This document shows, one piece after another, positions 1,276 through 58,458 of a stretch of DNA of 64,000 nt. Each line of letters opens with the position of its first letter. The stretch's first letter is position 1. Source of the stretch: Bilabrum cf. latius (lineage: Eukaryota); the NCBI GenBank assembly GCA_965178125.1, contig OZ237750.1:434001-498000 (forward strand), read 5' to 3'. The notes below the pieces were generated by a model. That model was not told the DNA's origin. It made no database searches and worked only from the letters and a program-made list of their open reading frames with translations. A program made the position numbers and the translations under genes.

Positions 1276-1313
1276 GAGTCCTTGAGACCGCTTGAACGCG
1301 ATATCTTCGAAGA

Positions 1314-7200: not shown

Positions 7201-10200
7201 GTCTTTACGCAACTACTCAGCAGGAGATATCTGCGGCTCGGTAGCATCGGGAGTAGTGCCTTGGCTGCGGTAATTCGGCTTGATCCGCCCACGAGCTGGC
7301 CTGCCCTCCATTTCGCGACTGAGCTCCTGCACCCGACGGATGACATCGTCCGTCGATTTGGCACCATGCGTCAATACGCTGGGAAGGGTGTCCTTCATGA
7401 CAGACAGGACTTTAACGTCATCGGCAGTCGAAGATTTACCACCTTGCGGGGCGCCCTTGGCAGTGCCACTGTCCACATTCGGTGCTGCTGCCTCAACGTC
7501 ATGTGCGGCACCACCAGTGACCGTCTCCTTGCGCTCGGGCTGGGTCTATTCGGCTCGCCGTTGGGCTGCTCTACGGCGCGCCCGCTCTCTAGCGGCTCGC
7601 ACGGCGTTCATGCGTGCCGTGGAGAGCCGCGCAAGTCGCAGGCGGCTCGCCGGAGTCACCACTTCTCTGGAAGGCCCAACGAACTTGCTGCCTTTCGCCA
7701 TCGCGATCTTCCGGAGGATGTCTGCTGTAGCTTGGATGGATTGCGATTGAGGCATTGGCTGCGGCGCAGTCTTACGCTTCCGACCTTTTGCGAGGTGCAT
7801 TGAAGGCTCTGAAGCTCTCCAACGCTGAATCTTCTGCAGAGACTTCGTATTCCGGCTCCTCGCGTCATACGACGGCACTGTCCTGTTCGGTACCTTGGTC
7901 CACATTGATTCCATCGATCGGCGGGAGAGCTCGATGGCGCGTAGAGTCTGCTCCATCTTGCGACCCTCCTCTGCGTGCTTGCCGAGGAGCGTGTGGAATG
8001 ACTCGGCGCTTCGCCCGTCCTGGCGGCGCGATCCATAGGCTGCTTCGTCGCGGGCCTGGGCCTAGCCGATGGCCCGAAGGAGGCGGTGCCTCACGGTGGA
8101 GTTCTTGATAGTGCCTGGTTTGATGGACGACAGTTGCTGCTTGGACAAGGACCGCAAGATGCGCTCTGTCATGAGGCCACGCTGTGCGAGCGCAGTGAGC
8201 TAGTCGCCGTCTAGCCTTCTTGGTCTGAGTCGCTTGAATAGGGAAGGTTTCAGCGGACGGACCTTGCGCTGCCTGCCCGACCTGCTGGCTGATTTCCCCC
8301 TCTAAACTGCTGTATTCGCCGATGATGATTGCTTCTGCTTCTCGCTTGCATCATCCTATGAGTTCTGCTCCGACTTTGACAGAGACTGTACAAATTGCTT
8401 TAGCTGCTCGTCTGCTTCCACCGCGAACTCCAGCAACGCCTCGAGTCTCGCCTCCGAGTGCGGGCCAAGTGGTAACCGATCCAGCGCCTGTAGCACCCCA
8501 CGGTACGGCGCAATCAGCCCCGGCCGGCGACTTAGTAGCTTCAGCAAGGCATGCATCGTGTCATCCTCTTCAGGTGGCATGCTAAGGATGGAGCGGATGT
8601 CCGTGCGAGAGCGCGTCTGAGAGATTGCGGGCGCGAGCTTGAACGGCACACCGTCAGCGGTGGAGCCAAGCAAGGCAGAATCCAATCCTCGATTCCGCCC
8701 GATTTCGGCGTCCCGAATCATGGCTTGGAAGTGAGCTGCCTGCTCGGGAGTCAGCTCTTCGAGGGCAGCGGTGTCGATCTTCGCCGCAGCCTCTTTGAGT
8801 TTCTCCTCGTGCGACTTTGCCTCTGCGGCTTCAGCACTCTCTGCGACCTTCGGTTCCTGCGGAGATCCACCCATTAGCTCTTCAGGAGTGCCTACCTGCT
8901 CCTCAGCAATCTCAGTCCTTTCGGCGGTTGGTCGCCCACCATCATCTGCGGCTTGGCTTTCGCTAGAACCTGCGCCCGCAAGCCGACCCTGATGCAGCAC
9001 GCTCTGGGCTCTCTCGTCTGCGGTCATGACGAGCTCGGATGGCAACCGAAGCTTCAAGATTTTTTCTTGCTCCTCTGGAGACAGGACCGTCTCGGCGGCT
9101 GTACTTCCACGCAAATTTGAGGGGCTGCTTCCAGTCCACTCGAAAAAGGCGATTCGCCTGACGTCCCAGCCCGCCGTGCGGAGGAGCCTCTCCTTCCAGC
9201 GCGAAGATGCGTTCAGATCTGTGGAAACGCCGTTCGACGACACATCAGATGTAGCCGCGTCTTCTGCGAGCATATTGTGCAAAAGGGCGAGTTGCAATAC
9301 AAATAGAATTGCAGCGCATTCGCTATTCGCACAGTGCTGCGAGTGGTTGCCACTCAATTGCTCGACTGTCCTAATATTCACGGACGACGAGCACTCAACA
9401 AAAGCGGCTGCGCCGCCAACCATGCCCGTAGGCTGCAGCAACCACCGAGGCGGAAGCGCGCCAGGCAGGCACCGGGTGGCAGCACTTATCTTGCAGCTCT
9501 GAAGAACCAAAATCCGCACCGGACACGGTCACTCGTTGCCGAGCTCCCGCGGCAGAAATCAGCAGATACAGAGTGCTTTCAATACAAATTAGCAGGGCAC
9601 TACACTACAAAACGAGGCAACAAACGAGCCAATAGACTATCACTGCACAATAAGAGCTATCCCTCACGCGGCAAGAAGTGATGCGGTCCGTCGACCTCGA
9701 GGCATACCATGCTGCTCGGCCACGCAGCATCCAAGTACAGCTGTTCATCTGTTAGGTACTCCCTATAAAACGGCTAGAAAGCTGCGGTTACGAGGATTGA
9801 ACAAGCAAAAAGGCATACCAGTGCATAGCAGGAACGAGCACTAAACAGAAGGGCAGGTGCACGCGCGCTACAGTCTTACACATCTTGCTTCGCAGAGAGA
9901 AGAGCACGTCACTCTGCAGCTGCGACTATTGCGCAGATGGCGTCGATTCTCCTGTTAAAGCATTCTGCACCGCAAATCGCAAACGCGGGGGCAGCTACAG
10001 CTGCTTCGGCCCTGACAATGTCCCAATCTTATCCAAGGTAAGCTGAATCTGCCTCAGCTGGACGATGGTCCTAGTACCGAGAACTTTCAGTACCTCTGTC
10101 TGGAGGCCAGCCAACGACTGCGTGCTTCCAGAGGCGTACTCACTAGAAATGTACCTCGAAGCCTGGAACACAGCGGCCAGTCCCTGCTGCAGCGGCGCTG

Positions 10201-13216: not shown

Positions 13217-13410
13217 GTATTTAGTTGAGACCTAGATCGGCCAGGCTCTCGCCTCTGTTGATGAATAAGGGAACAAGCCGGATGTTGCATTGTTGGGTGC
13301 ATGTACGTATCACTCGTCACAGCACAACAAAACCAGATCTGGGGTATGACGGAATTTGCCGAAGTCGTACGGCAGTCGAAGCCTAAACTTGCGTGTGCCG
13401 TTATCTTAGA

Positions 13411-25685: not shown

Positions 25686-25850
25686 ACCAAAAGGCGGCCA
25701 AATTTGAGAGACGTTTGGATCAAGACACCACCGTGCAATGAATCCACACATCGTGTATATCGAATTGTTACGTTATAAAACCATCAAGATCTGCAACCAC
25801 CCAATCACCGAAATTTTCTACTGAACTGTTGAGATCTATAAATAAACAGT
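25686..25850. promoter_or_regulatory. Putative bidirectional promoter between WDR90 and the SDR gene
   Basis: 165-bp AT-rich gap between divergent ATGs, with TATAAATA just upstream of the SDR ATG. Confidence 0.45.
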
Positions 25851-26726: not shown

Positions 26727-26878
26727 GCGCGAGTAATGCGCATTGCGATAAGAAAGCCATCGTTGCGGCACTCAAATAACTACGCTGTTGTTGCGACCAT
26801 TCGCGTCTTTGTGAAGATGAAGATACTACTAGCCGCGCGGATACAAAAAACCGGTGCAAAGGGACATACTGCGCTGTC

Positions 26879-29560: not shown

Positions 29561-32500
29561 TCAGCAGCAGTATCCGCAGCACATGATGGACCCGTGCTTC
29601 TTCAGCCCAGGCAGACCTTGCTCCCCAGTTTCCTGCTTGGCTGAAATCACCTGAAGGCCCCTCCGCAGCGGGACCACAACGTCCTGCACCTCCTCGGGCA
29701 CCAGCGTGAGCAGCTCTCTTGCGGACTGGAGGGACTCCTACAGCGACCCAGCGGCGGGCCAATAGTACACCCCAACTGCGATAGTGAACGCAGCCGCAAA
29801 CACATACGTGACGATGGTCATGACCCCCCTGGTCGTGGACAGCCTCGCCGCCACCTCATCATCCATGAGGCGAAGCACCAGGCCGTACGCCTCCCGCATG
29901 TGGGGCAGCTCCAGAGACACCATGCGGAGCACGCGATGCCTGTTGTTTGCGCTGTCCATGCTGACAGCAGCGCTTGAAGAAGGAGACAGCTGCGACAGCA
30001 GCTCTTTTACGATGGACCCAATGCTCACCAGCGTGTTGAGCAGGCCATGGGTCATGATGCCTCCCTCCACCTCCACGCAGTCGTCGAATTGGAGCTGGGA
30101 ATCCACCTCGATCGCAGCCAGGATCGAAGAAGTGTTGCTGTCCTTGAGGACCTGAGGCAGGGAGCGCGATGACGCGCCCTTGGGCAGCACGCCGTCCCAT
30201 TGCCGCGAGGGCCAGTTCTCCGTGTACACCGGGCTGCAGGCGTCATGCATCAGCAAGTCAAGGGCAGCTGAAGACGAGGGAAGGGGTGGAAGGTCCACGG
30301 AGACTGCCGTGTAGTCCGAGGTTGTGGTGCCGCCGAACTGGATCAGCTCAGACTGTTCCGTCAGCAGCCTGTCGTGCTGCGCCACCCTATCGTAGGCCTC
30401 TAGCTGATCGTGAGTACCTGCGCGACCCAGCACCAGCTTTATCGACTGCCGCAAGGCACCAGACGCGTGCAGAGCAGATTGCTCGACCACCACCACGCGC
30501 TTGATGGCCGTCTCTGTGGAGATCATCCTCGACCGGAGGTACAGCGCGGTAAAGAGAAGCAGGCCCAGCACCAAGGTCACAGGAGACATGAAGAGGCAGA
30601 CCTTCCTGCAGATGAAGTTGGAGGACGATGTGTAGGGTCTGGACGGGGGCGGGATCGTCTGGTCCCCACCCCCACTTGAGACGGCGCCCGACGGAGCCAC
30701 CATCCGGTGCTCAGACATGGCGCTCTCGTACTTGCTAGACGATACGCCAATCGGTCGGCCGCCAAGCATGTCGTTTGTCGTCATCGGGCTGTCCTTTGAG
30801 CCGTGGCCCAGATCTGACTGGGCCGATTCGATGTCCATGACTGGCACACCATCCATTACCCTCCTGCTCCGACGACCAGGAAGCAACTCAGACTGCGAGC
30901 CCTTCGATTCCATGTTCTTGGCATGCTGCTCCAGTCGACGGAACACCTGACGCTCGGCTGCCTTCAACACGTTGCGATACACCTCCTCGCCGTCTGCCTC
31001 CTGCACAATCAGCCGTTTCTCTTCGTCTTCGTCATCGACCCCACCAGTCCCTGCGGAGGCCCCGTTGCTGTAGTCCTCCTACTCCACGACCATGCGGTCC
31101 AGGCTGGACTGAGCGCGGTCCTTCAGGGCCTTTGCTAGTCGTCGAGGGACGTGCAGCAGCAGCATGGTAACGGCCTGCGTGCGCTCGGCGATATCTCTCA
31201 CCGCAGAGTAGAAGATGGGAGCGGCGAGGCACACGCAAACCGCAAAGGACAGCATGCCACCGAGTATAATGTCCCTCTGGATCCGAGGCATGGCCGTGGC
31301 GAAGTCCCTCTATCTTAGCGCGAGGCTCTCGTTCATCGCGTCCATGAACGGGTAGTAGTTCAGCTACAAAAACTACAAGGGGACGGCGCTTTCCTGGTTC
31401 ATCTCTTCGATGTGCAGCTGCCCAAGCTGTGTGAAGGCAGTGTACATCTCCAGGCCAAGGTCCACCAGGTTGATCGTGCGGTTGGAGGGCTGGCTGCCTG
31501 GTGCTTCTGCATTTGGCTGCTGCACCTGTATGGACCTGTCAAGCTCGAAGTGGAAAGCATCTTTACCTCCGGCTTCCTGGATGTCGAACAAGTGTTCGTG
31601 CCGCTGTCGCATCGCATTGCTGTGGGCTGCCATCATTGCGACGTCTCGCGGGTACCCTGCAGTATCTCCAGCGGCGTCGTGGATGTCAAGCAGGTCCACT
31701 GCCATGGACGCGTTCGAGCTGCCCGTTGCGTTGGCGGCCTCTAGCCACGTGCTGTACCTGTCCAGATTCTCGGCATAGCTCATCCCGTACTCGAACTGAA
31801 GCATGCGCTCGCCTCCCTTGGTCAGCGCCACGGTCAGGGCAGACAGACGGTCGAGCTGGGCGTCCAGCCAAATGAGCTGGGCGGTGCCGATCACAAGAAC
31901 CGCGACGACGAGGAACGCGAGAGTCTGCCTGGAACGAGTCACCTCTGGTTCAGTCAACTTGCCCAGATTGCGGACGTTCCGCCTGACTGCAAGTACGGCG
32001 TTGGACCCGCTGCTCATCATGGACTGCCCTCCTCCCATCCCACCGCCCGTCATTGCCGACTGCATCGACGCCCGCTTCGACTTGCCCATCGACGGGGACT
32101 GCAGCCCTCCCGACGTGATGCGCGAGGTGCCCCCCTTGCTACCGCTTGCCATGCCTCTCCACCGCACGGCGCCAGCAGTGACGTCTAGGCTCCTCCTCTG
32201 GAGGTTAGAGCTGTTTATCACGTCAGATGTGTTCCTTTCGTTGGCATCTACTTTGCGACGTGTACCCATTCGAGTTGCCTTGGAGCGTCGCTTCGACGCC
32301 GTCTTTTTCTCCAGAGGTTCGCGCGAGTCCGTGTCCGAGAGGTCATCCATGTTGATCCCCGCTCGCGGTTTCGTGCCATTCTCTTTGAAGAAGTGGGCGG
32401 AGGGGCGGTGAGCCCAAGGGCCGGGAACCTTGCTGTCAGCCTCTGCTTGCTTGCCCTCAGCGCCTGCTGCTGCTGCTGTTGCTTTCGCTCCGCCCGCTGA

Positions 32501-35500
32501 GCTCCTCTCACTCTCCGGTGGGCTTGCTCCGGAATCGCTCGATGACGCCCTGGAAGTACCCTGCATGTCTTCTTTGCCGACCGTGCTCTGGGTCTGCTCT
32601 TGGGGATCGTTGTCGGAATCGGCGAAGAGCTTTTCGGCTGTCGCTTCTGCGACCAGCTGCTGATGACCAGCAACCGCGTGCACAGACGCGCCGATGTGCA
32701 GCCGCGTGCTAGTAGCAGCAGAGTCAACTAGGACAGCGTCTTCATGCCGTACCGCGCGCTTGGTTTGCAGAAGGGGTTTCACCTCGTCTGTGCTCGCGCC
32801 TGGTCTTAATCCACCGGAAGCTAGTGCTGCGATCGATTGTCTGGCCGCGTCTCCGTTGTCACCGTGGCCGCCCAGGCTCGGACGGCTAGCCCTAGACTCT
32901 TCCATACTCTTGTACTCATACACCCTGGATCCAAGCGCGATATCGCTGGCCCCATCGCTGCCCCCATCGCTGTCTGATTCGTCCGATGACGAGTAGTTGC
33001 CGGCAAAATTTTTCCTGTTCAGCTCCGCTTCCTGATTCTTGTCCACAAACCTCCAACGGAGCACGAAGAAATCGCCGGCACCGATCGGCAGCGGGACGAA
33101 CTGCACGCTGCCTAGCAAGAGAACATCGCCCTGGGGGGTACCCACCGCGGGGATGAGACCCACCTTGCTGTTCATGAGAGACAGAAGGGGCTTCACGTCG
33201 GCGGTGCGGCTGCCAGGACCATGAGAGCTGGGGTGCTCAGTGGTGCCGGCCGGAGCATCAGTCTTCAACGACACGGATGTGGCGGCGCGGGCCAGGAGCG
33301 CCCTTTCGGAGGTGTGATCCTCATGCCAGCCAGACATGTTAAGCAGGCTGCGCTTCCGCTTGCCAATCTAACCGACCGCAGTACTCTGCGAGCTAAGGAT
33401 GCCTGGGGGTGCCCGGTCGTTTTTCCCTCTGTCCTCACCCGACCCGGCGCCCGAGCTCTCTGCACCAAGCGCGCCGTCAATCCTGGACTGGATGAGCTGC
33501 CCTCTCCCAGTTTCAGCCTGACTTGTCTCCACCGTGTAACCCGTCTGGTCCCCGCTGGTGGACCGTTGATCGCTCTCAGAAAGTCCGCTCTCTGAAGGCC
33601 TTTTTGCCACCTTGCGGGCGTGGCTGCGGGCCACTGAAGACCGACGGGGCCGGCGGGCATTTCGTCGGAGTCCGAACTGCCTGCGAATGTCGTGCACGGC
33701 AGGTTGCGCCTTGAGCTGCCTGATCTGATCTCTATTCAGCTCGACGGTGGCAGAGTCGAAGGAGGGCGCGAGAGTGGGGAAGTAGGAGAGCATGTGTGCC
33801 CTGCCGTCCCCAATCTGGTCGTGGGAAAGCCCCAGGAGATCCACCGACTTCTGCGTGGCTGCATACATCCTGAACCCGCCTTCCACGGGCGCAAATGTGA
33901 TGTAGTCGTCCTCGCTGACGATGGGTCGCATCACCGCCGTGAACCTAGGCTCAAAGGTGCGCTCGTCCGGTGGAGACTCGATGATGGTGTTCCAGGCAGG
34001 GACCAGAGAGCCGTCTTGCCGCTGATAGAACACCGCCCTGTCCCTGTTCATGACCCGGGTCCGCTGACGGGGAGCCGCCGCGAATCGACTCAGCAGCGAA
34101 TCGTGGGCGGAGCGGATGGGTTCGGGCAGCACGCTGTTGATGTTGTGGCCCAGCAGTGCCGCCTGCGAGTATCCGAGCATCCGGCACGCCGCGGGCGACG
34201 CCGCGACGATCTCTCCGATGGAGGACCCCTGTCCCGAGATTGAGATGACGGCGCTGCTCTCGTCCATGATCGAGAGCCTGGCTGCCTTGACGTCAGCGAT
34301 GGCTGCGGCCGACATCCCTATCATGCCTCTCGCGGCGAGATCCCTCCGTTTCGCTGCCACGGCACTGGCAGAAGCCATGCCGGCTGTTCCGCCGCCCGCG
34401 CCGTGCTCATCGCCGTTTGGCCCCGTCTGCTCTGGCTTGGCCGGGGCGAGCATGGTGACGGTGCGCACGACCTTGCGCTTGTCCTGCCTGTGCACCTCTT
34501 CCAATCGATCCGCCTTGTTGAGGTACTCTTGTGCCTTATCTGGGTCCTGACCTAAGTCCAGCAGGTGCTTGGCGTATGCCCTCAGCGCGCTGGTGCTGTC
34601 GCTGTTAAGGTCCAGCATGGACCGGTGCAGCGAGTCAGCCGAGTGCAGCGTGCGCTGCAGCTGGAGCCCGATGGACCACAGCTTGTCGAGGTCAGGCGCC
34701 ACGTGCGACATGTTGGCCCACAGCCTGGTAAGCAGCTGGAAGCATTTGGTGCGAGCCTCCTGGGCCTGGTTGAACATCTGGTCGAAGAGCACCCTGTCGA
34801 TGGGGGAGGAGCCTTCGGAGCCTGTTTCTCGCAGCTGGGTGGACCGGTGGTAGATGTGGAATAGCACGTCGAGGGAGGGAGACAGTGCCCTCGCGCGGGC
34901 AAGGGCCATGGCCTCGTGGAAGAGCCATGGGCTGTGATCCCTGAACCCGATGGACGCCAGCATGCAGGCCATCTCCGACTGCGGGAACTGGGTGAGGAGG
35001 AAGTGCATGCCCCGGAAGGACTCGCGAAGCAGCCTGCTCTGCTCCTACTGCCGGTGGCGGGAGGCGCGATCCACGGCTGCAGAGACGCCGTCATCTCTCT
35101 TCTTGTTGTTGCTGCCTCCTCGCCTGGTAATGCCGTCTGTTGAAGTGCCGGCTTTGCCCTCTTCTGCTTCGGCGGCTTGGGGAGCAGTGCGCTGTTCGCT
35201 GTCCTCCTGCTCCTACGCAGCGGCAGCGGCGTACGCCTGGGCGGTTGTCGCGTCTGCCAGGGACTCAAGCTTGGCCATTTGCCTCAGCCTGAACCGAATC
35301 CATGCGTTTACGTCGTATACAGAGGAGGCCCCCGCGCTGAACTCTTCCAATCGCATGCTGGTCACATGGAACTGCCGCACGTACACGAGGGTGCCTCCAG
35401 CGAGACCCGCGACGGCACCGCCGAGCAGGAGAAAAGCAGAATGATCCTGGCCTTCAGAGGATGCCTACCCAATGGCAAGGCTCACGCCAAACCAGAGGTA

Positions 35501-36518
35501 GGTCGCGGCGAAACCTCCCATCAGGGCGTTTAACTCGGGAAGTGGGTGTACAAGCATGTAGGACGTCAGGTAGTACCACAGCGCCCCGCACCCGAGATGA
35601 ACAAGAGTCATATAAATCGTTCCAAGCAGCTGGTCGGCCAAGAGGTTGGATACGAGCGACAAGGTCAGCATAATGCACAGGACAGCGACATCAAGCCGTC
35701 CGGTCGCTTTTGCCGCCCAGGAGGCCGAAGTCGGATCCTTGTCGTGGAACACACTTGCAACTAGTAGTGCAAGTACTGCGAGGTAAGTCAAGTTGATGCG
35801 TGGCTTCGATAGGTCGGCATTTGATTCCAACTGGGCACTCTGTGTCATGCTCTGTCACACTGCGCAGCTTACCTGTCAAGATGAGCACAAAGATGATAGC
35901 CACGACAGCGGTGATGATACGTGCTGGAGAACTGCATTCTGCTCCTGTACCGAGCCAGTCGTTGTCTGTGCAGCTAATGCCTTGGAACAGCAATCCACTT
36001 ATCGGCAGGTAGAGCACAGACGCTGTCAAGCTTCCTGCCCATCTATAGACTCTAAGAAGAAGCCCGTTCTACGGCCAGTCTAACATGAATGATACTGCAA
36101 TGAAGCAAGCCGTCGCACAGACTCCAGCAGTCCATGCTGCAGCAATTGCAAAGAGAACCGGCTGAAACGCCGAGCCCTTCGATGCGCTTGCAGGCGCCAA
36201 GTATGACACGGCTCGACCGTACGCGAGTGCAACTGGAGAGTTGCCCCAGGGCAGTGCGCTGTTCGAGGCCACGATGAAACTGGAGAGCTGCAAGAAGCGA
36301 ATCGTGGCTATGAAGACGTAGTTAAACCTAGAATCCTCTTGCTGGCGAGTAAGCAGCGCCAGAGTACCGAACAAGCTCCTGACGATCTGTAGACCAAGTC
36401 TATCAAGGCATGTATTAGCCTTGCTGAAGTCGAAGAAACCAGTTTTGCTGGTGACCGACTGGCGGCCATGGTTTGCGCTGGTGCTGCCCGAATCATCAAC
36501 GGATGCAGAGCTCGCCAT
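29561..36518 (-). CDS. Large multi-pass membrane protein with PAS domain (tiny macrocysts TmcB/TmcC-like), ~2,286 aa; exons 36518-35873 and 35775-29561
   Basis: N-terminal TM cluster with DKDPTSASWAAKATGRLD, helical region LRAYAKHLLDL, PAS motif IVAASPAACRMLGYSQAALLGHNINSVLPEPIRSAHDSLL, then two TM-pair modules ending LLLHVP and LLTLVP. About 10 in-frame TAG. Ends at TGA. Confidence 0.78.
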
Positions 36519-36804
36519 ATCTCGAATCTTTGTTAAGATTCTTCGGACCAATCCTCTATCAATCGATACTACAAGTAGACAAAAAGGCTCTGCCGTGGGA
36601 GGATGGCGAGATACGAGCCTTTCAGGGGTTCTTTTCACGTCTACTGATGAAGTGCTCACTATTTGCAGTACAACTTTCGAAAGAAGGTTGGTGAGTCGCA
36701 GTTGGTCGCAAATTCATCTGATTCGACGCTCCACCCTTTTAAACAACAGTTCGACTCGGACACCGCTATCCTCTATACCAATAGTGTTTCAGCCATATGT
36801 GAAT

Positions 36805-37772
36805 TTAGTCTTCCATTGCTGCTTGGGTCGCAGCCTGCGTACCCTCACCAGACGAGCCAGCACCTCCCTCACCAACCTTAGAAGCCCCCCGAGCGGCACC
36901 CAGCCTCGCTGACAGCCGCTGCCCCTCTGCCTCCTCGCTGCGCTTGGCCTCTGCGAACCTCCTGTCCCGATCGGCGAACGCAGCCTCGAGGATGGCCCTC
37001 TGCGCGTCCGTCTGCGGCGCCGCGGCCCTCGCGGAGGACACCAGCTCGGGGTACTGCGAGGCAGCGTACTGAAGCACGTCAGTGGCCGTGAGCTCCGGCC
37101 GATCCAATTCTACCGATCGGGCCTTCGCACTCGCGGCTCCACCTTTGCTGAGAAGGTCTGTTTCGGCCTGGTGGGCCGCGGCGGCACCAGAGCCGCCAAG
37201 CCTGGCCTTTAGCTCGGCCTCAATCACCCTCTTCTGCTCGCGGCCGTGCGACGTGCTAGACATGGCATCCTACCCAACCACTCGTGAATCTCGAGATACT
37301 GCCTCCTACGGAACGACTGAACCTGCTGGGGCGGCACCGACCGAAATACCAAACTCAGCATCGGCGGCGTGCACGGCGGCATCTGCTGGCGTTTTCGCGA
37401 TTCGGGCAGCCTGTCTTGCCACCCGCATCCGTGCTAATTTGCCACCGCCCGCAAGTAGTTCATCGCAGAACTCGACCGAGTCCTGGACGAGAAACTGCGA
37501 TCCAAACGAGCGCGCTGGTTGGTACTGGTCGTTGCAGCTCGACCAAAAACTCAAATGAATACTATGGAGGACCGCAATGTACTTACTTCTTCAACAAGCG
37601 GGTCCAATAGCAGATCGGGGGCTTCTTTGAAGAACTCTCCCCGGATGAATTCCCTTAGCATCGAATCGGACTGCAACAAGCAATAATTCAAGGAGTAGGA
37701 CAGCTGGGACCTAAACTACACCAACATTGCATCCGTATACCTACACATCAGAAGCCTTACTGGAGCTACCAT
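36805..37772 (-). CDS. Hypothetical helical protein, 5' end uncertain; exons 37772-37761, 37670-37587 and 37494-36805
   Basis: Introns 37671-37760 and 37495-37586 have consensus sites and join in frame. In-frame TAG at 37306 and 37270. Ends at TAA 36805-36807, followed by AT-richer sequence. Confidence 0.5.
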
Positions 37773-38407
37773 CGCAAGAGTATTCCTCCTTTGAAGAAAG
37801 TGGCATTATTGACATGCGATATAATATCTGCATTGACACTAAAACATATCGCAACAAAACGGCAGCGCCCAAACGAGCGCGCTGTTTTCATCCCGCTTAC
37901 TCCAGCGCCTCCGGGAGAAAGATGCATAGCGTACAACTATACATAGCTATGCCACTCTCCATGCTGTCCTCTACTCGAGGCAACCAGCCCCCTACAACAA
38001 TCCCTCTGTAACCTGAGCCATAGTAGGTCACTGTCAATCCCTAGACTTAGATTGTGTTCATTGAACAGCAGCTGGTTGCTGCCCGCACTACTTCTTGCAG
38101 ACACAATAATTGCGTCTAGCGTGGGAAGGGGGGCCGAGCGGATCCTCCGGACCGCTTCCGTTCCATGCTGCGACTGGCGCGAAGCTCCTGCCTTCTTCTC
38201 TAGAGGCGCGCCCTACTGTGCGCACTTCATGTGCAACTGCCACAGTGTTATCGAGCCGCTTATTTAAAGCGCCATATGCATGCCCTTCGGTTGGCTGCTT
38301 TGGTGCATCCCAGCTAGTTCCTCGTGCTACGGCGTCGGGCTTCATCGGCCTAGTTCATCCGACTGAAGTGGTGAATCACCCGTAGTCTCCTGCGACTACA
38401 CAAATTC

Positions 38408-38910
38408 TTATCCTGGGCTTTTCCTTAACCTTCGCAACCTTCTTCGTCTCCGGTTGCTGCAAGGCCGAGATCCATGGTTAGCCTGCGAAAGTGGCCGAGA
38501 TGACGCTACAGCAGCAAGTTAGTTTCATGAACGAATAAGCGCAAATAGAAAGACAGGAAAACATACATGCGTGTCATCGGTGGCTAGGAAGGTTATCTCC
38601 ATAAGGAAGCAATGTTGTTAGGTGCTCCTCTTTATCAAAAAGTCTGGTGCTAGTCAAAAGGTTCGTCATTTGACACTGAATCGGGGCTATGGATCAGTAT
38701 GCAACATAAACTCACTTTCTTAGGGGATCGCTTATTCCTGTTCAACATTTCCAAGGTCTCTCGCATGGCATCGCTGGGGCTACCAAGGCATAGCACGGAT
38801 TGCATCGTAGATGGCCCAATTTGTGCAGTTCTATGCAATGCCCGCGCTTGAGATGATTGTGCTATTCTTGGTGCAATTTGTGCAAACCTTGCCACCCGTG
38901 TGGCAAGCAT
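38408..38910 (-). CDS. Small mitochondrion-targeted basic protein with KANHGxRP (bL37-like) motif, 89 aa; exons 38910-38716 and 38482-38408
   Basis: Presequence-like MLATRVARFAQIAPR...RALH. The spliced C-terminus reads MLNRNKRSPKK|ANHGSRPCSNRRRRRLRRLRKSPG followed by TAA. Intron 38483-38715 (GTGAGT..CGCAG). Confidence 0.65.
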
Positions 38911-38969
38911 CCTTTGCTGGTATTCGCTTTGTGGTTGTGCGGTCGGAGGCCAGCATAAATCTTGAATAC

Positions 38970-40118
38970 ATGATAGTACGTTACATTCATTACGAAGGTT
39001 CGCTTAAGCTCGGTTTTGCGACAGCTGCAATAAACGCGAAAAGCAGCATTACCATGTCCACCAAGTGGGTTGTGACTTCTTTGGTTGCGCTTGTCTCACT
39101 CTTGCACCGTAATGGGCATGCAGTTGCGGCGATTGGGGTATCTTTGCTGACTGCCCTCTTCGGCAAGATCATGAAGGCCGGCTTAGCGGTCGGACGGCCA
39201 GCAGGTGCGAGATAGAAAGACTACGGAATGCCCTCATCGCATTCACTTATGCTATTTTACTTTGCAGCCTTTGTGTCAAGCTCGGTATTGCTCCGCGGGT
39301 GGAGGCTATCCAGCAGCGGATACCCAGTCCCACTTCCCAGGCTGTCTCGGGGGCGCGACGACGCAGGAATTGTGCACACTGAGCTCATTTGTGGGGTACA
39401 AGATCCTGTGGTTGTTCGCAATGTCGGCGATGAGCGCGGGGAGAGGCGGTCGGTGAAGCAGGAGCTGCTCATGTGCGACCACCTGGACCTGGTTGGTTTC
39501 GTCGCGGGCCCCTCGGCAGACGATGTGCGCGGCATCGTTGGTGAAGCCGCAGCAGATGCGTTGCAAGTACCCGCAGAACATGTTGCGACTGGCCTGGTCA
39601 TCCCGGTGATTGTAGCAGCGTCTGCCCTGTCAGCGTGGAGGATTTGGGCGGGGCTGCACACTCCCGCGCAGGTGTCTGTCGGCGCGTTGCTCGGTTCGAC
39701 CTTCGGCGTGTTTGGCCACTGGGCGGCGACGGCAGAGCGTGGAATCGGTAGGATGGTGGACACGTGGATGCGCGGGGGTGACCCTTGGTCCCTCGGTACG
39801 ACCACTCAGAGGCTTGAGGGCAGCGAGGCGCCCCCCTTGGGCATTGGAGCAGCGGGAATCGGACTGGGACTCGTCCTGGTGGGGCTGGCGCTCGTGGGGT
39901 CGATCGAGAGGACCCTATGCCCTGTGAATTCGACGCATACGGGTTCGGGTGATGAAGGCGGGAGCTGCGGGAAGGACGTGAATCAGGGCCACGGGGAAGG
40001 TGCCGGGGGTAAGGACCGCAGAGAGGATCCGGATGCTGGCACCAGTGGGCCTCAAAAGGATGCAGATGGAGTGGCTCGGGCACCCAGCGGCGTGCGGAGA
40101 CGGCACAAGGCAAAGTGA
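38970..40118 (+). CDS. PAP2-family lipid phosphate phosphatase (LPP-epsilon / dolichyldiphosphatase-like)
   Basis: C1 KxxxxxxRP (KAGLAVGRP), C2 GMPSSH, C3 RIWAGLHTPAQV. TAG 39213-39215 lies between C1 and C2. Start may instead be 39054. Ends at TGA. Confidence 0.85.
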
Positions 40119-40297
40119 TTGTTTATTTTATGGCATTTCAATGCAAGTTCGCGCTTGCTAGTCTCCGGACCAGTGCGACCACAACGTTCCAGCCTCATCA
40201 GGCTTCGTGTGCACCGCACTCACGTGCAATGATCGACCGCCGTCGGTTCGGTTGCAGCAGTCCATCCGCGTCCACCCGGCAGCCGCTCCGGTTCGCC

Positions 40298-43200
40298 ATG
40301 GCGGGCTCTGCGCAAAAAGAGATCATTGTCACGGTTGAACTTGAGCTAGACGATGGCATGCTCGAGCTCAATGTGTGCAGGGGCGAGGATCCTGAGGCAA
40401 GCGTGGACTCGTTCGTGCAGCAGCACGGCCTCGATGCTGATGTAAAGCCGATCCTCCTTGACGAGGTGAAGCGCAATCTTTTAGATGTTGCGCAACGAGT
40501 GATGCCCGCTGTGTCCTTTCCTGTAGAAGTGGCTGACGGATAGAATGAACAGCTTGAAGCATAGGAGGGCGAGGCGTCGCAAGCGGCGGCGGAATCCTTC
40601 CTGCGCTCCCACTCCTTTGATATCACGCCGGACTTTGTTGCAATGCTCGAGGAGCAGATAAATGGTGATAGAATCAAGCATATTCTCGAGTTTGGAATTG
40701 GGGGATAGCTTCGAGACGTCGAGGGAAGCTACGGTAAGGTGTTCGTCCCCATGGGATCCGAGAGGATGCGAGCAATTCACCATTAAGATACCGCGCCACT
40801 CATAATTTCTAGTCTGTTTTCTCGCAGCGCCTGCAGAGGAGCCGGGGGCCGAAAGGGTTCCGCCCCAAGGGGCGCCACCGGGTGGAGGCCCCAACCCTTC
40901 GGAAGACACGAGGAACCCTGCAGATGAGTACGAGCCGGTTGATATCGACGACCCTGCTAGCAGCAAGCGCGACCAAGTAGCTGCAGCTTCTGGAGAGACC
41001 CCCAGTCCGCCCGCTGGTCCGGATGACGACAAGGCCGCCGGGCCGCAATCCGAACCAGACTTCCGGGCGGCATCCGGTGAATTAGCCGGCGCCGCGGCCG
41101 CAGCAGCTGCTGCCATGGCAAATATTTCCTCTCCAGAACCGGCCAGAGATTCAACGCAGGGCGTTTCCCCCCCTCCCTCGTCCGAAGCCGACAAGGAACC
41201 AAAAAAGGAACGTGCTGCCAGTGAGGAGGTGACAGAAGCACCAGCGGATGCACCAGCACCCGAGCCCGCACCAGCACCAGCACCAGCGCCCGAGTCGGCA
41301 CCAGCACCAGCACCAGCACCAGCACCAGCACCAGCACCAGCACCAGCACCAGCACCAGCACCCGAGCCCGCACCAGCACCAGCACCAGCACCAGCACCAG
41401 CACCAGCACCAGCACCAGCACCAGCACCAGCACCAGCACCAGCACCAGCACCAGCGCCAGCACCAGCACCAGCACCAGCACCAGCACCAGCACCAGCACC
41501 AGCGCCCGAGTCGGCACCAGCACCAGCCGCCGAGCCGGCACCAGCACCAGCACCAGCACCAGTGCCTACCCAGGAGCCGCCCTCGTCGCTCAGCAAGCCG
41601 GATGTAGGTGTGGACATGGGGGGGATCGAGAATGACGCAGAGGCGGAGCATGAGCTTGCTCAGTTTGGACTCTCTCCCGTCTCCTCCCCGCGACGGTCCG
41701 CTAGCGATGGCAAAGCACAATCGCCAGGGGGCAAGCAGGAGCAAGCCAGTGGTGCTCTCCGTGACGGTGCTAGCGATTCAAAGGCCGGTGATCCCGCAGC
41801 TGAGACACAGGGCAATGGCAATGGTGCGCAGTCCGCGGACGGTGGAGCTGCTGAAGCGCCATCAACAGAGCAAGCAACGGAGCATGCTGCAGCCCAAGAG
41901 GGTGGCAGCAAGCCCGATGCAGCTGCAGGAACAGAGGACACAAGCCGCGAGTCGAAGACCAAAAAGAAGAAGAAGAAGAGCGGTAAAGAATTGCCCGAGG
42001 GAGAGATTGACCCCACCTTGAGCGGCGAAAGGATCGGACAGATGCACCTGTTCGAGTGGCCATTCGAGGGATGGCCTCAGCCGGATGTCTGCGGGACCTG
42101 GATGCCCCGCAGCATCCGCTTCGCTAGGGCAGAGGGCTCTGCCGCCAGGCAGACGAGCGACGTCGGGCTCCGACGATGCGCCGTGGTGGGTCTAGCAGGG
42201 GCGATGAAGAGGAAAGACATCCGGGATGCGCGGAAGTCGGGCGCAGCCGGCCCGCGTCCTTCGACTGCCGGGCGGGCCTTGCAGCGCAGCAAGGCTGCTG
42301 CGGGCGGTGCCCGCGGCAGCCCCTCACGCGGCACCAGCTCGCCAGCCACTAGGGCGCAGCGCATGCACCCCGACATCCGAGGCAGCCAGCTCAAGCTGCT
42401 GCAGGAGATGACCGGCCTCATCCAGGCCATGGAGTCGTGGGACCCGATCGTGTCGTCTGGGCCGAGGAAGCGCCTCACCTACACCATGGAGGCCAGGGAA
42501 CAAGGGTGGTGGGCCTCCCAGGCACTCATCTTCGAGGCACCGAGAGGAAACGCGTGGTACAGCTCGCCCGACGACTGCGGAGCCACCAGGTTTGGCTGCT
42601 ACCGACAGGACCTGGTGGAGCCGCTGGGCCTGCAGAGGGACCTCGCTCGCAAGGAGAGGGACAAGGCAGCCGGAGCAGGTGGGGATGACAAAGGTGAAGC
42701 GGACAAGGACGGTAGAGAGGAGGAATAGCCGTCTGTAGAGGAGGGTGCTGGTGGTGCGGCCGGATCTGAGGACGGGGCGTCGAGATCGACTTCGCTGCCC
42801 ATGCAGCCCCTCGTTCCCGTGGACCTGCTGCTGACTTCGCCTGCGATCGGCATGTACATCTCGGAGTTCATCAGCGTGAACACGGGCAGGGGCGAAGAGA
42901 CGGTCGAGTGGTTCGAGGATGATGTGCCCTACGGCCACGGCCTCCAGGGGAGTGCCATCGCCGTGCAGAAGATTCGCGTGCCAGGCAACCAGCAGACGCT
43001 GACCAGCATGATGCAGCCCGAGTTCGCCCAGGCCTTCATCATGCCGGGTGACATCGTGGTGGCGTGTAACGGGACCCCCATGAAGAACGCCCCTGACACC
43101 GTGGCGGCTCTGTCCCGCGTTGACCTGGCTATATCCAGGGCCACAACGGAGGCACCCCAGTCCATCACTCTTCTGATGCCAAGCGAGAGAGCCAAGCGGG

Positions 43201-44930
43201 CCATGATCTGGCAGAGGGCGTGCGACCTCTACAACCACCTGGAGAAGATCGGCGTCAACGTGACCGACCGGCCCTCCCCCCCGCAGCGTGGAATCCCCGC
43301 CCCTGCCAGTGCGAGCAGCCGCCGGCCGTGGGGCAGGAAGGAGCTCCCGCCTGCCAGGCCCTCGCCGGTGTCCTCGCCGGCTGGCGGTCCCGTCCGGAAG
43401 CCCTCGCCCGTGACCAGGCCTGGGTAGTACCGGGCGACCAGGGAACAAGTGGGCCAGTACGGCTCGGTGAAGCTGCCTTCCCCCGACGGAGAGCAGACGA
43501 TCGTTGGGAAGGTTGTGGTGCGGCGGACTAGGGAGGGCGGAGAGGTGGTCGACGTGCAGGTGAGGGAGGGTGCCAGCCTCGGGGTCGTCTTTGCAGCCTT
43601 CGACAAATCGGTGCGTTCGAGAGCCGAGAGCTCTGGCGCGGCAGCCACGGGTGCTGGAGACGACGCCGCACTCGTCACGGAGTTGTCCGGTCTCACGGGG
43701 CTGGCGGCGGTGGCGGAACCGTCGGCGCTGACTAGCAACTTCGACACCAGGCTGGAGGTGACCCGCAAGGCGCTGGTCGTGACCCGCGCTGCGTCGGGCT
43801 GTCCCGGCGAACACGTGGTTGCGGCCGGTGACGTGCTCGTCCGGATCGGGGGAACAACCGCGGAGGACCTGTGCAGAACCGCGGCCCAGCACGCGGACGG
43901 TCCCCTGGCCGCCCTGAGGAAGGGGCTGATGCGGGCCATCCGCGCCGGCACCATGCAGACAGCCACTGCCTCGGGGGACAGGGTCAAGGTGGTGACATAC
44001 AGGTTCAAGAGGTTTCCTGGAGATGCGCTGGCGCTGCCCACCGCCGCCTGGGATGCAGCTCTGCCTGCCCCTGCTGCTCCTGCTGCTGCTCCCGGCCGAG
44101 GGACGGGTGCCGGGGCTGATGCCGGTTCGGAGGCAGCGGTGAACGAGGACGGGAGGCGTGAAGTGCCGAGGCTGCTGCTGGACAGAGTGCGGGCAGGTCT
44201 CATTAGTACGGGGGGCAGACAACGGCAGGGTGCATCGAACGGCGGTGCAGCGGGGTACAGGCCCGGTGAGGAAAGGTCGGTTCGTGGCGGTGGTGGTGGT
44301 GGCAGTGGGGGTGCATCGAACGGTGGTGCAGCACCCGCCGGCGGTCGCAAGGGCACCCGGTAGCCCCAGCGCACGGGGCGCAACCCCTCCCGCATGCCGT
44401 TCAACTCGCCCAACCCTCCCGTCGGTGTAGGTGGTGCTGGTGCTGGCCCTGCCGTCCCGGCCGCGATGTCGGCGGCGATGTCAGGCGGGGGGTCAAACCG
44501 GAAGAGGAGGGCTGGAGCGAGGCGAGCCCTCATGGCTGAGCCTGCTGGTGCTGGTGCTGGTGCTGTTGCTGATGCTGGTGATAGTGCTGTTGGAGGGGAT
44601 GCCACTGGGGTTTCCACAAGCCGTGGTGGCGCCGCGGGGCCAAGGTCTTCAGGTACCCTCGAGGCCCGTGTGGTGGGGGAGGTCATGCCGCCTCCGCTGC
44701 CCTCAGACCAGCTCACTCCATCAGGAGAGGCCCAAGGGGCTGCAACTGGGACTGGGTTCTCGCCGGCGGTAAATGGCGGGTCCTCCTCGGGTGGTGCCGA
44801 TGCTGGCGAGGCTGGCTAGGATGGCGTGGGGCCCAGCCGGGTGGATGGCGAGAACCTTGATGACCACTCCGACATCCTGGCCAGATCGGCTGCCGCTGCC
44901 AGTGCTGCGGAGCAATCGCTGTCCAAGTGA
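40298..44930 (+). CDS. ~1,512-aa protein with tandem PFU-like N-terminal repeats, poly(Pro-Ala) linker and two PDZ-like segments; exons 40298-40733 and 40828-44930
   Basis: LNVCRGEDPEASVDSFVQQHGL and LEAQEGEASQAAAESFLRSHSF repeats; IMPGDIVVACNG and VAAGDVLVRIGG PDZ-like motifs. Same-frame ORFs are joined by 7 TAG (40541, 40562, 40706, 42726, 43425, 44361, 44817). Ends at TGA 44928-44930. Domain names are tentative. Confidence 0.6.
41250..41562 (+). repeat. (CCAGCA)n tandem repeat encoding ~50 Pro-Ala units with PEP/PES variants
   Basis: Directly visible hexamer array inside a CDS. Confidence 0.95.
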
Positions 44931-45178
44931 AGCGGCTCAGCTCGGCGAGTTAGTGTGATGATTATCCTGCTGATGTTTCTGATCGTGAACTTCTGTCCCC
45001 ACATATGATCGGTTTCATCCCTGTGTCTTTGCCTTACGAACACACACTTGTTTAAACACATTCGAACATGTCTCTTTCGGGACTAGTGAACCTCATCCCG
45101 GGCCCGGGATGGATCGCTGACCCCATCGAAATTCAAGTAGTCTTCTAGTCCGCGTTCGTCGTACAGCCTGGGTTCCGC

Positions 45179-47962: not shown

Positions 47963-48138
47963 CAGGTTGGATGGGACGTGCGAGAGTATTGCAGTGTTGT
48001 TGCTCGTACAGATGGCAGTTTCATGCTTGCAACCCCTCCCTCAACAAATAAGCAAACAAATGCATGCCGCCGCTCGTTCGTTTAAACCTTGCATGGCTTC
48101 CGAGGAATCCCCGCTCGCTCAGGTTGTGTGCGACCAAT

Positions 48139-48501
48139 TCAAGTCGAAGCTGCCTCCTACTCGGCAAGTAGCTTCTGGACTTTATCCGTCAACTTTTGCA
48201 CCTTCTTGAGAGCTGCTTTCTCGCCCATACGCATGAGCACTCTCGAAAACGAGAGCCATTCGGCTAAATCAAGCTGCTCGTTCGAGTCCGAATCTGCTTT
48301 TCGTATCTACCTCCTTGCCTCTTCTTTCGTGACACCTTTAAGTCCCATCGCGCGAGCAAGCAAAACAAATTCATCATCATCTAGCTCTCCGCTGGAATCC
48401 TTATCCAAAGCGTTGAAGAGCTCCGTCAGCTTCTCTTCCACCGCAGGCGAGAGCTCTGGTAGTTCGGGCTCCGCTTCAACTCTATCACCGGCAGCTGCCA
48501 T
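48139..48501 (-). CDS. Two-EF-hand calcium-binding protein, ~120 aa (an upstream exon is possible)
   Basis: EF loops DKDSSGELDDDE and DSDSNEQLDLAE; the second lies beyond TAG 48307-48309. A further TAG occurs near the end; stop is TGA 48139-48141. A CGCAG acceptor-like site sits just upstream of the ATG. Confidence 0.8.
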
Positions 48502-48898
48502 CGTACCCTGCGGGAAACAGTCGCATACGTAATATTCTGATACTCATCGGGGCATCGGCATGTTGCGGTGGGTCTGCTCGAGGGAGCCTTGCGCTGTGGG
48601 TTGTGGCTAGTTGCACCACGAATTGGTGAAGCCTCGGACTTACGTGCAAATGCAAGCCAGCAAAGAAAACAGTGCACTGAGAAAAGTGAGTTTGCCTCGG
48701 CCAGTGTCTCGCTCGCTGTTCAGAATAGTCTGGTGCCGATGATAATGCGACTACCAGCGGTGAACCTTCGCAGCCGCGGTCGCTTCAGCTGTGAGCTCAT
48801 TAGTGGTCGCACAGCAACGTCAGCGAAGCCCCCAAGAATTGTGTGCACCGGCACGCTGGCAGAACTCATCTATCATCATCAGTCAAAGGAGGCGTCTT

Positions 48899-50544
48899 TC
48901 ACAGACTCTTAGGCGCATCGTCGTCCCCCTCGAGCTCGTCCCCGTCACCGGACGGCCCGACCGGTCTCCCCGGATCAGCGCCGGGGCCCGCGCTCCCCCC
49001 GAGGGCAGACCCCATGGCCGCCACCGCCGCGGCTTCATCTCTCCTTGCGGAGGAATCGTAGCGCGGGTCTACCAACGGGGGCGCGCCGCCAGCCCCGGTC
49101 GCTCCCAGGTTCGAGACCCGCCTCGCCGCCAGCCGGTCGTCGGCCTCGGCGTCGCCCGCGCCGCCCGAGGCCGCGCTCTGCGCCATGTCCGACTGCCCCT
49201 CGAACGTGAATCCCCCGAAGCTGGGCGGGGTCGCCCCCGTGGCATCCTTGAGCTTCGAGTCCATGGGGGAGGGCGTCACCGCCGGGTTCTCTGCAGTGAA
49301 CTCGGGTGCGATCCTAGAGGTGTCCTCCGGTCCCTTGACCCCGGGCTTCCATGGGGGAGTGACGTCCTTCTTCATGAGCTTGTCCAGGTCCAGGGAGGCG
49401 TAGAAGGGGTGTGCGAGCACGTCGTCGCCGCTGATCCGCTTGGAGGGGTCTCTCTGCAGCAGCTTGGTGCAGAGGTCGAATGCGTCAGCTGACATGGTGC
49501 GGGGCTGGGTCAGGGGCGCGTCTAAAATCTTCCTGTACATGGCCTGGCGGTTGCGGTCGTAGAAGGGGGGCAGGCCCGCGATCATCTCGTAGAGCAAGGT
49601 GCCCAGGGACCACCAGTCCACCCCGTTGCCGTAGGGCTTCTTGCGGAGGATCTCCGGGGCCAGGTACTCGGGAGTGCCGCAGATGGAAGTGATGCTCTCT
49701 CCTTCAACTCCTTCCTTCGACAGGCCGAAGTCCGTGATGCGGATGTGCCCCTGCGACGCAAGCAATAGCAACGGAACGGAAACACCTGGAGAAGATGAGG
49801 ATACGAAGGGAGAAGGAAATACGAGTCGCCAGGGCGCGTGCCGGGTCCAAGCGGTCTCACCTCAGCGTCCAAGATAAGGTTTTCTGGCTTCAAGTCCCTG
49901 TACACGATGCCTTGCTTGTGCAAGTAGTTGAGGGCAAGGGCGATTTCGGCTGAATAGAACCGTGCGCGGGTTTCACCGAACCGGCCGCCTTCGCTCAGGT
50001 AGTAGTACAGCTCTCCGCCATTGAAGAAGTCGAAGACCATGTATAGCTTGTGTTCGCTCTAAAACGCGTATCGCAGCGCCACAATGAACGGGTGACGAAT
50101 CTAACCAAGAATACGTCTCTCGGACAATGTGTGCTCGTACTGCTTCCTGCGGATCACCATGTCCTTCTTCAGTATCTTCATAGCGTAAATCTTTCCACTG
50201 TCCTTCTTACGCACCTGCACAACCTTGCCAAAGCTTCCTTTGCCGACTGTTTGAAGCAGCATGAAATCATCAAGCGTCGCCTTCTGCACACCCTCCGTGA
50301 ATTTGTCGATCATGTCTTGCTTGATGTCGCCACATTCGCCTCCACTCGAAGCATCGGTCGCAGGTATTTCGCCATCCGTGGTGCTGCCTGCTGGCCCTGC
50401 ATCACCAGCTCCCGGAGACGCACCTTTGGCATCGGCCTATGCGCCAGTTCCGGTCGCTTCTTGTGCTGACGCCTTGTCCGGCTACGCCACTCCCTCTTTC
50501 TTGACGGCTCCTGTCTCGCCGGGTTTCGAGCCTCCCTATCCCAT
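48899..50544 (-). CDS. AGC-family Ser/Thr kinase (Akt/SGK/S6K-like) without PH domain, predicted N-myristoylated, 511 aa; exons 50544-49861 and 49750-48899
   Basis: MG[TAG]GGSK start, [25 protein letters not shown][TAG][31 protein letters not shown], hydrophobic motif FGGFTF. Intron 49751-49860. Five in-frame TAG. Confidence 0.93.
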
Positions 50545-52565: not shown

Positions 52566-52738
52566 ACTTTCAGTTGAATAAAAAGCAGAAATGCAGTTTT
52601 TCCCGCATCCGCGCCATCCAGGCAGCCAAATCTGATTTTGTTTGCAATTAACACCTTACCTCCGCGTTTCGTGGCGAGCTTCCTCTTGCAGATAATAATC
52701 ATTTCAGGTATATATAGGGAACAAACTCACCAGCAATC
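52566..52738. promoter_or_regulatory. Putative bidirectional promoter between MAT and GCAT
   Basis: 173-bp AT-rich gap between divergent ATGs, with a TATATA at ~52709. Confidence 0.45.
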
Positions 52739-54052
52739 ATGCAACTAGCTGCTATTCGAGCCGCTGCTGCGAAGTTTACTTCAAGATTCTCTACGAACCA
52801 CGCGGCATGGAGCCGACTTGCCGTTCAGCGACGGTGGCAATCACAGGAGGCTGCCCAAGAGACTCTGGAAGATCGTATCCACACGGAGATCGAAACCATG
52901 AGGAGCGAAGGCACTTACAAGCAAGAGAGAGTGATTACTTCGCCTCAGAGCGCTTCGATCCGGGTTCAGGGCAGGACGGAGTCTGTGCTGAACTTCTGCG
53001 GCAACCAGTACTTGGGATTGTCGAACCACCCAGAGCTATGCAAGGCCGCGAAGGATGCTATTGATACGCATGGATTCGGTTTGTCCAGCGTGCGGTTCAT
53101 TTGCGGCACGCAGGATCTTCACAAGCAGCTCGAAGCATCTATTGCGAGATTCCACAAGACCGAGGACACGATCCTGTACCCGAGCTGCTTCGATGCCAAC
53201 GCGGGGCTCTTCGAGGCAATCCTGACCAAGGATGATGCCATCATTAGCGACCAGCTGAACCACGCGAGCATCATTGACGGCGTTCGCCTCTGCAAGGCGC
53301 GCAGGAAGCGGTACAACCACCTCGACATGGTCGACCTCGAGAAGGCCCTCTAGGAGACGCAGGACTGCCGCGTGCGACTGATCGCCACGGACGGCGTGTT
53401 CTCCATGGACGGCGACGTGGCCCCTCTCAAGGACATCGTGGGGCTGGCGAGGAAGTACGACGCCCGCGTGTTCATCGACGAGTGCCACGCCACGGGCTTC
53501 TTCGGCCCCACCGGGCGTGGGACGGACGAGTACTTTGGGCTGCAGGGGCAGATCGACATCATCAACTCCACCCTGGGCAAGGCCCTCGGGGGCGCCACGG
53601 GTGGCTACACGACCGGCAAGGCGGAGATGGTGGACCTGCTGAGGAACAAGGCGAGGCCCTACCTGTTCTCCAACACGCTGGCCCCTGCCGTGGCGGGTGC
53701 CAGCATCAAGGTATTCGAGATGCTGGAGGAAGACACCTCCATGGTCCAGACCCTCAGGGAACACACGCACTACTTCCGGGATAGGCTGGACGCCGCCGGG
53801 TTCACCGTGCTGGGTGCCAGGGACCATCCCATCTGCCCTGTGCTTCTGAAAGACGCACGCCTCGCCGGCGAATTCGCGGACCGCATGCTGGAGAAGGGCA
53901 TCTACGTGATCGGGTTCTCCTTCCCGGTGGTGCCCAAGGGCCAGGCCCGCATCCGCACGCAGCTCTCCGCAGCGCACACCAAGGAGCAGCTGGAGCAGTG
54001 CGTGGAGGCCTTCATCGACGTGGGCAAGGACCTGGGCGTCATCGAGGGGTGA
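52739..54052 (+). CDS. GCAT: 2-amino-3-ketobutyrate CoA ligase (glycine C-acetyltransferase), mitochondrial, 437 aa
   Basis: Presequence, [54 protein letters not shown][TAG 53351-53353][40 protein letters not shown]. Confidence 0.96.
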
Positions 54053-58294: not shown

Positions 58295-58458
58295 TGACTC
58301 TGGATAAACCTGTGTGAGACACCACTCTCGAGTATATTACAGCTAGTACAATGCAGCATAGCGTTGCTTCCTTACGGTACCCCACCTGATCCCGGATAGT
58401 TTTGTTGAACACAAACAGTTTAACCGTATCGTCGCAGGATTGGCTGTTGAAATACTCA

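Follow-up and report, generated by a model that had tools for sequence, protein, structure and literature searches.

The locus analysed here raises the question of whether the codons UAG and UAA carry different meanings in one genome, with UAG read as an amino acid and UAA still ending translation. The window was a 64-kb stretch (64,000 nucleotides) of Bilabrum cf. latius (contig OZ237750.1, positions 434,001 to 498,000 of the forward strand), and positions given below are counted from its first letter. The GC content of the window was 55-65%. The standard code gave broken reading frames, while TAG taken as sense gave open reading frames (ORFs) of 900-3194 codons on both strands. An earlier reading of the DNA from its letters (the sequence-only reading) had proposed that UAG is sense, that UAA still terminates, and that two genes, designated gene A and gene B in this study, end at TAA (Table 1). 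Analysis of codon usage, spliced contigs, gene ends and environmental relatives indicated that the window is very probably nuclear DNA from a protist, probably a stramenopile, whose GC-rich genome has few introns and uses a table-15 type code. On such a code, cytoplasmic translation would read UAG as glutamine and would use UAA and UGA as stops, with a strong preference for UGA.

Codon counts were obtained from 20 gene models (17,131 codons) with TAG as sense. The models contained 83 TAG, 0 TAA and 0 TGA, together with 518 CAG and 144 CAA, and at least one in-frame TAG occurred in 16 of the 20, conserved enzymes and kinases among them. This count is partly circular, as TAA or TGA had served to set the ORF limits. 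A non-circular set was provided by five ORFs whose limits are identical with TGA as the sole stop (4204-9528, 15330-24914, 26727-29450, 29561-35854 and 58390-63723), and these contained 53 TAG, no TAA, 317 CAG and 86 CAA. If TAA stood to TAG as CAA stands to CAG, the five ORFs should hold ~14 TAA, and the probability of finding none was ~1e-7 (arithmetic on the counts), while 23 TAA would be expected against 0 seen in all 20 models. The share of codons ending in A (NNA) in the other two-fold purine-ending pairs was 14-31%, so the shortfall of TAA is independent of CAA as the yardstick. The counts bear out the earlier observation that TAG is common in frame and TAA is absent.

Contigs identical to the window were present in three public sequencing runs (X5, X6 and X7) and were compared over 20 kb, positions 30000-49999; a further run, X8, covered little. 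The contigs of X5-X7 skipped six short GT..AG segments (35776-35872, 37495-37586, 38482-38714, 40733-40826, 48507-48642 and 49750-49859). The three runs were taken as RNA-derived on account of these six splice junctions and of contig limits that track gene limits. All 18 in-frame TAG codons of the gene models between 30000 and 49999 fell in contig pieces with 0 differences from the window, one of them (38808) probably lying upstream of the start codon. TAG was thus not edited away in the RNA-derived contigs.

The intron joint of gene A was found in X5, X6 and X7. The coding sequence (CDS) of this gene begins at or upstream of the ATG at 37659-37661 and carries in-frame TAG codons with first bases at 37308 and 37272. 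Past the TAA, the mean codon score fell from 0.33 to -0.18 and the GC content of third codon positions (GC3) fell from 0.74 to 0.40, and a second in-frame TAA stood 21 codons after the stop. The next in-frame TGA (36622-36624) lies past the contig end at 36704 and falls within 35873-36635, the piece of contig that belongs to the neighbouring transcript. No Pfam family matched gene A. One database relative (P0057), 94% identical in the compared region (36805-37263), likewise ended in ...AAMED. Runs X5-X7 also carried contigs with 22 listed differences from the window (34328-35009), and these variants, together with the 94%-identical variant of gene A, suggest another haplotype, a closely related strain or a homeologous copy.

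Gene B as a single ORF comprised ~34 codons, and removal of the intron at 38482-38714 gave a 95-codon CDS from the ATG at 38908-38910. Its contig coverage was the deepest of the 20 kb compared. The predicted product is small, basic and highly expressed, its N-terminus resembles a presequence, and it includes a conserved NHG.RPCS stretch. The last exon (23 residues) gave a weak match to the Tetrahymena mitoribosomal protein mL102 (6z1p_AQ, E 0.44). On this match, the product may be a mitochondrial ribosomal protein.

Two contigs from one metagenome, L001 (10.5 kb, 1-10513) and L002 (4.8 kb, 1-4790), were found by a scan with the TmcB-like protein of the window. The protein identity of these relatives to the window was 44-57% (52-57% for L001). 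L001 was syntenic with the window and kept the gene order of 29561-40118. Across 227 residues its orthologue of gene A was 52% identical to the window protein, that of gene B was 92% identical in the final 25 residues, and that of the PAP2 gene was 56% identical. The L001 orthologue of gene B (1639-2132) ended in ...RRSPG followed by TAA and that of gene A in ...KMEE followed by TAA, both in positions that match the window, and the in-frame translations past both TAA codons were unrelated between the window and L001. The conservation of TAA at both ends, with similarity lost directly after, is on sequence comparison the strongest evidence for termination at TAA in this lineage. The ORFs of L001 and L002 contained 26 TAG and 0 TAA in 3,378 codons and were unchanged under a TGA-only code, and for this reason the relatives seem to share the code, which would appear to be common to a wider environmental lineage.

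Complete 3' ends were available for 20 genes (the models and an EF-hand gene), with TGA at 18, TAA at 2 and TAG at none. The 2-amino-3-ketobutyrate CoA ligase (KBL) gene ended in TGA, and its alignments reached query residue 464 of 466 and, in three solved bacterial chains, the final residue or the one before it. TGA is therefore a terminator and not a sense codon, as shown by 18 of the 20 ends, the lack of internal TGA, and the end of KBL at the C-terminus of its homologues. The two TAA gene ends proposed in the sequence-only reading were confirmed by the spliced contigs and by the TAA codons of the L001 orthologues, and the tandem TGA TAA that it had placed at the end of the last kinase was also found. 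It had further stated that the other genes end at TGA, which holds for the 18 TGA ends, and two further TAA codons that end ORFs were set aside as intronic, one of them on a predicted intron. One of these (40784-40786) was rejected as a gene end as it lies within an RNA-supported GT..AG intron (40733..40826, plus strand; joint 40732>40827 in X5, X6 and X7), and the other (9788-9790) as it is enclosed by a predicted intron, which interrupts a RAP domain. A third ORF ending in TAA (56017-56460) was weak (score 10) and was not counted as a gene.

The RAP domain lay across three frames (9100-13309, minus strand), with an S.LQSDV...-type start ahead of the TAA at 9788, a core (EVDGPHHF) in a second frame, and the domain end (...RLLRTAGWDV..FFEW) in the ORF that continues to 4204. 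The ORFs 9788-13309 and 4204-9528 may form a single gene (~2,900 codons) in which the RAP domain is internal; alternatively, the domain may belong to a RAP gene for which no true end was found.

The amino acid encoded by TAG was assigned by comparison with relatives. The C-terminal 848 residues of the TmcB-like protein, used as a HMMER query, gave 55 relatives, many of them short fragments at 45-66% identity. The decoding alignment was made from the window protein, the L001 and L002 ORFs and the 18 closest of the 55 relatives, with the other 37 left out. It contained 34 TAG columns, with 9 TAG in the window and 15 and 11 in L001 and L002, respectively, one column being common to L001 and L002. 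Residues opposite TAG (n=113) included 46 Q, 14 R, 10 S, 8 A and 4 L, against a background of 4.7% for Q and 10% for L. Of the 18 TAG columns with flanks at least 50% identical, 14 had Q as the majority residue; A was the majority in two, E and L in one each, and S in none. In both gene A and the PAP2 (dolichyldiphosphatase-like, DOLPP1-like) gene, L001 also carried TAG at a place occupied by Q in the window. Judged from these alignments, TAG is a regular glutamine codon, and it makes up ~11% of the glutamine codons in the 20 models. The amino acid, left unnamed in the earlier note, is glutamine.

Table 1. Position, strand and main characteristics of the genes, transcripts, stop codons and other features of the window
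Feature	Position	Strand	Characteristics
TAA stop of gene A	36805..36807	-	after ...AAMED
Gene A transcript	36704..37710	-	spliced contig; exons 37710-37587 and 37494-36704; intron 37495-37586 (GT..AG)
TAA stop of gene B	38408..38410	-	after ...RKSPG
Gene B transcript	37821..38928	-	contigs spliced in X6 and X7; intron 38482-38714 between exons 38928-38715 and 38481-37821
TmcB-like/PAS gene	29561..35854	-	9 in-frame TAG, 0 TAA, ends in TGA; served for decoding TAG against relatives
2-amino-3-ketobutyrate CoA ligase (KBL) gene	52652..54052	+	TGA end, control for TGA as a true stop
Long kinase gene	58390-63723	+	1777 codons; tandem TGA TAA at 63721-63726
In-frame TAG of AGC kinase	50059..50061	-	opposite Q of Akt2 'YAFQT'; all 5 of the 5 alignments shown are Akt2 chains
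Predicted intron	9764..9880 (approximate limits)	-	~110 nucleotides; GTGTAAG donor, TATAG acceptor; predicted from sequence

Several observations weigh against a code in which UAG is glutamine and UAA a stop. A window TAG column with its first base at 31375 (flank identity 0.46, outside the 18 well-flanked columns) had R in 8 of 8 relatives, another window TAG column had L/A/R, the TAG of KBL stood opposite I/K/K, and one TAG of the AGC kinase stood opposite N. Only 2 gene ends with TAA were seen. The material covered was ~64 kb of the window and 15 kb of relatives, which leaves room for rare sense TAA elsewhere in the genome. The runs were labelled only 'RNA?' (X5 'probably DNA'), so the RNA origin of X5-X7 is what we infer from the six GT..AG junctions. 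The position at which a contig stops indicates only weakly where a transcript ends. The matching glutamine tRNA (transfer RNA) with anticodon CUA and the changed eRF1 are drawn wholly from established knowledge of such codes.

A code of the table 6 type (UAR=Gln) would make TAG and TAA both glutamine and TGA the sole stop, with TAA merely rare through high GC. It agrees with a genome of ~60% GC in which NNA codons are a minority and CAA is 22% of CAA + CAG, and with TGA at 18 of the 20 gene ends, but 0 TAA were found where 14 (non-circular set) to 23 (all models) were expected, and L001 and L002 had 0 TAA against 26 TAG. Both TAA ends stood at the same residue in L001 with similarity gone directly after, and past the TAA of gene A the coding score and GC3 fell with no in-frame TGA before the contig end, so that this code was considered very unlikely. 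A context-dependent code of the Blastocrithidia or Condylostoma type, in which TAA or TAG is sense inside genes and a stop at their ends, and for which the window would be too small a sample, was regarded as unlikely. Codes of such dual meaning exist (PMC5304391, in the excerpts drawn on here) and the sample was 20 gene ends and 17,131 codons, yet TAG was at 0 of the 20 ends (a small sample) and TAA at 0 of the 17,131 internal codons, and the same held in the 3,378 codons of the relatives.

There is also little probability that TAG is something other than a standard glutamine codon, whether a codon for another residue (Leu, Glu, Arg), a pseudogene lesion, an assembly error or an RNA-edited site. 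In favour of this are the TAG column with R in all eight relatives, a column that was mostly L, and a TAG in the EF-hand gene at a position of calmodulin-type EF hands that we take to be usually hydrophobic. Against it, the majority residue was Q in 14 of the 18 well-flanked columns (with A in two columns and E and L in one each), TAG was unchanged in the RNA-derived contigs and was found in 16 of the 20 models, including conserved enzymes and kinases, and within the same gene the relatives carried TAG elsewhere, in addition to one shared position. The UAG=Leu code in particular was tested, and L was the majority residue in 1 of the 18 columns and accounted for 4 of the 113 residues opposite TAG, against its 10% background. 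That the stretch belongs to a giant virus or an organelle with a code of its own is extremely improbable, given the six spliceosomal-type GT..AG introns of 92-233 nucleotides, the GC content of 55-65%, the presequence-bearing housekeeping genes (KBL and gene B), the kinases and the 3194-codon WD40 protein, and no viral hallmark genes were present among the Pfam matches of the window.

With UAG as glutamine and UAA and UGA as stops, the decoding of UAG would fall to a tRNA-Gln whose CUA anticodon would not pair with UAA, and the eRF1 of the organism would lack efficient recognition of UAG and would still recognise UAA and UGA. A tRNA scan gave 0 tRNA genes in the window, L001 and L002, and Rfam at the gathering threshold gave 0 matches in 79,303 bases. 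The window carried no eRF1 gene.

From 2017 onwards, several unrelated nuclear genomes have been described in which UAG is reassigned and UAA remains a stop, according to the excerpts of PMC5304391 and PMC11687900 on which the comparisons below are based. In the fornicate Iotanema spirale, known from a transcriptome only, UAG is glutamine and UAA and UGA are stops, with UAA as the primary stop, and in the rhizarian exLh UAG is leucine and UAA is still a stop (PMC5304391). Pánek et al. infer for Iotanema and exLh a CUA tRNA and an eRF1 that spares UAG, and the eRF1 changes described are T32G in the GTS motif of Iotanema and alanine at L69 in exLh (PMC5304391). In Scotinosphaera, UAG is serine and UAA is still a stop, while the table-15 ciliates Hartmannula sinica and Trochilia petrani (phyllopharyngean) and Protocruzia tuzeti have UAG as glutamine with UAA and UGA as stops (PMC11687900). 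UAG acts in table-15 ciliates as a synonymous glutamine codon along the gene body, and UAA was at 93.5-100% of the C-terminal alignments of H. sinica and T. petrani (PMC11687900). Users of the UAR=Gln code (table 6) include many ciliates, Hexamita, ulvophytes and Streblomastix (PMC5304391) and, as reported, Amoeboaphelidium protococcarum (PMC6299283).

The codon meanings proposed for the window are equal to those of Iotanema and would carry the same requirement for a CUA tRNA-Gln and a UAG-sparing eRF1. The lineages are unrelated, however, and TGA ends 18 of the 20 genes here whereas UAA is the main stop there; genomic DNA, introns and a syntenic relative are at hand in the present case and a transcriptome only for Iotanema. 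H. sinica and T. petrani have the same code with the opposite stop preference (UAA there, TGA in the GC-rich genome here). The uncoupling of UAG from UAA is alike in exLh and Scotinosphaera, but the amino acid differs (leucine and serine, respectively), L being the majority residue here in 1 of the 18 columns and S in 0. The table 6 code has UAG as glutamine in common with the window, but UAA is also glutamine there, whereas here it is never in frame and ends two genes; in-frame TAA was absent from all window models and from the L001 and L002 ORFs.

The premise of the sequence-only reading that UAA and UAG nearly always change meaning together was correct, yet on the same excerpts their uncoupling is already an established category. 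Its central proposal (UAG as sense, UAA as a terminator, and the two codons uncoupled) was upheld by the codon counts, the spliced contigs and the conserved TAA ends, whereas the rarity that it implied was overstated. The code is the known table-15 type, so the uncoupling is not new in kind, and the lineage appears to be new for this code.

Comparisons with Pfam and the PDB showed ordinary eukaryotic genes in the window. These were MoaE, a GH42-like hydrolase, an enolase-superfamily enzyme, a short-chain dehydrogenase (SDR), the TmcB-like/PAS membrane protein, the DOLPP1-like PAP2 protein, the AGC kinase, S-adenosylmethionine (SAM) synthetase, the presequence-bearing KBL, otubain, an FkbM-type methyltransferase, the long WD40 protein (3194 codons, with low-complexity tracts) and the long kinase. 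The SDR gene ended at TGA 26724-26726 and the next ORF followed in the same frame without a gap (25842-29450, plus strand), with the coding signal back only ~167 codons on. We read this as two genes in one frame by chance and not as read-through of TGA. The SAM synthetase ORF (51054-52301, minus strand) was without the N-terminal GHPDK-type stretch that we take to be usual for the family, and its first exon probably lies upstream, past an unmapped intron. Long alanine-proline repeat tracts were observed at 41250-41571 and 44533-44592, within the 40827-44930 gene. At the low-complexity GC-rich repeats of this gene, contigs of other organisms or paralogues joined on and gave false long-range joints (32483>44064).

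The lineage was approached through the named protein matches. The best match of SAM synthetase was at 92% identity, and 9 of its best 120 matches were organism-named, of which 8 were stramenopiles at 73-77% identity (Placidida sp. five times, Suigetsumonas, Cafeteria and Ascophyllum) and the ninth was a Favella transcriptome. For the WD40 protein, the sole organism-named row of 4 was an oomycete at 30% identity. The ESM Atlas gave for SAM synthetase generic methionine adenosyltransferase clusters only, without usable taxonomy. The best named protein matches thus point tentatively to a stramenopile, as a pointer and not as a phylogeny. An affinity with Amoeboaphelidium (for which UAR=Gln is reported) was dropped, short of formal exclusion, because the best named matches were stramenopiles. 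No report of nuclear stop-codon reassignment in stramenopiles was present in the literature searched, the scope of which did not extend to subscription journals and the newest papers; as the assembly is public, those who produced it may already have described its code.

Under the standard code, annotation of such a genome would cut most long genes at TAG, and the database fragments of 90-420 residues that correspond to the ~2070-residue TmcB-like protein may reflect truncation of this kind. Genome sequences are few for such organisms, and here an assembly, RNA data and environmental relatives exist, from which the predicted tRNA-Gln(CUA) and the predicted change in eRF1 could be read. A reassignment of UAG alone means that eukaryotic termination can tell UAG from UAA, which bears on the evolution of the code, on eRF1 engineering and on amber suppression (PMC5304391, in the excerpts used). 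It is possible, at somewhat less than even probability, that a heterotrophic stramenopile-like lineage, made up of this organism and at least one metagenome relative at 52-57% identity, independently evolved UAG=Gln with UAA and UGA as stops in a GC-rich genome with UGA as the main stop, and that this is the first change of the nuclear code in stramenopiles. If the stramenopile placement is true, the finding would represent an independent origin of this code in a major group without a reported nuclear code change.

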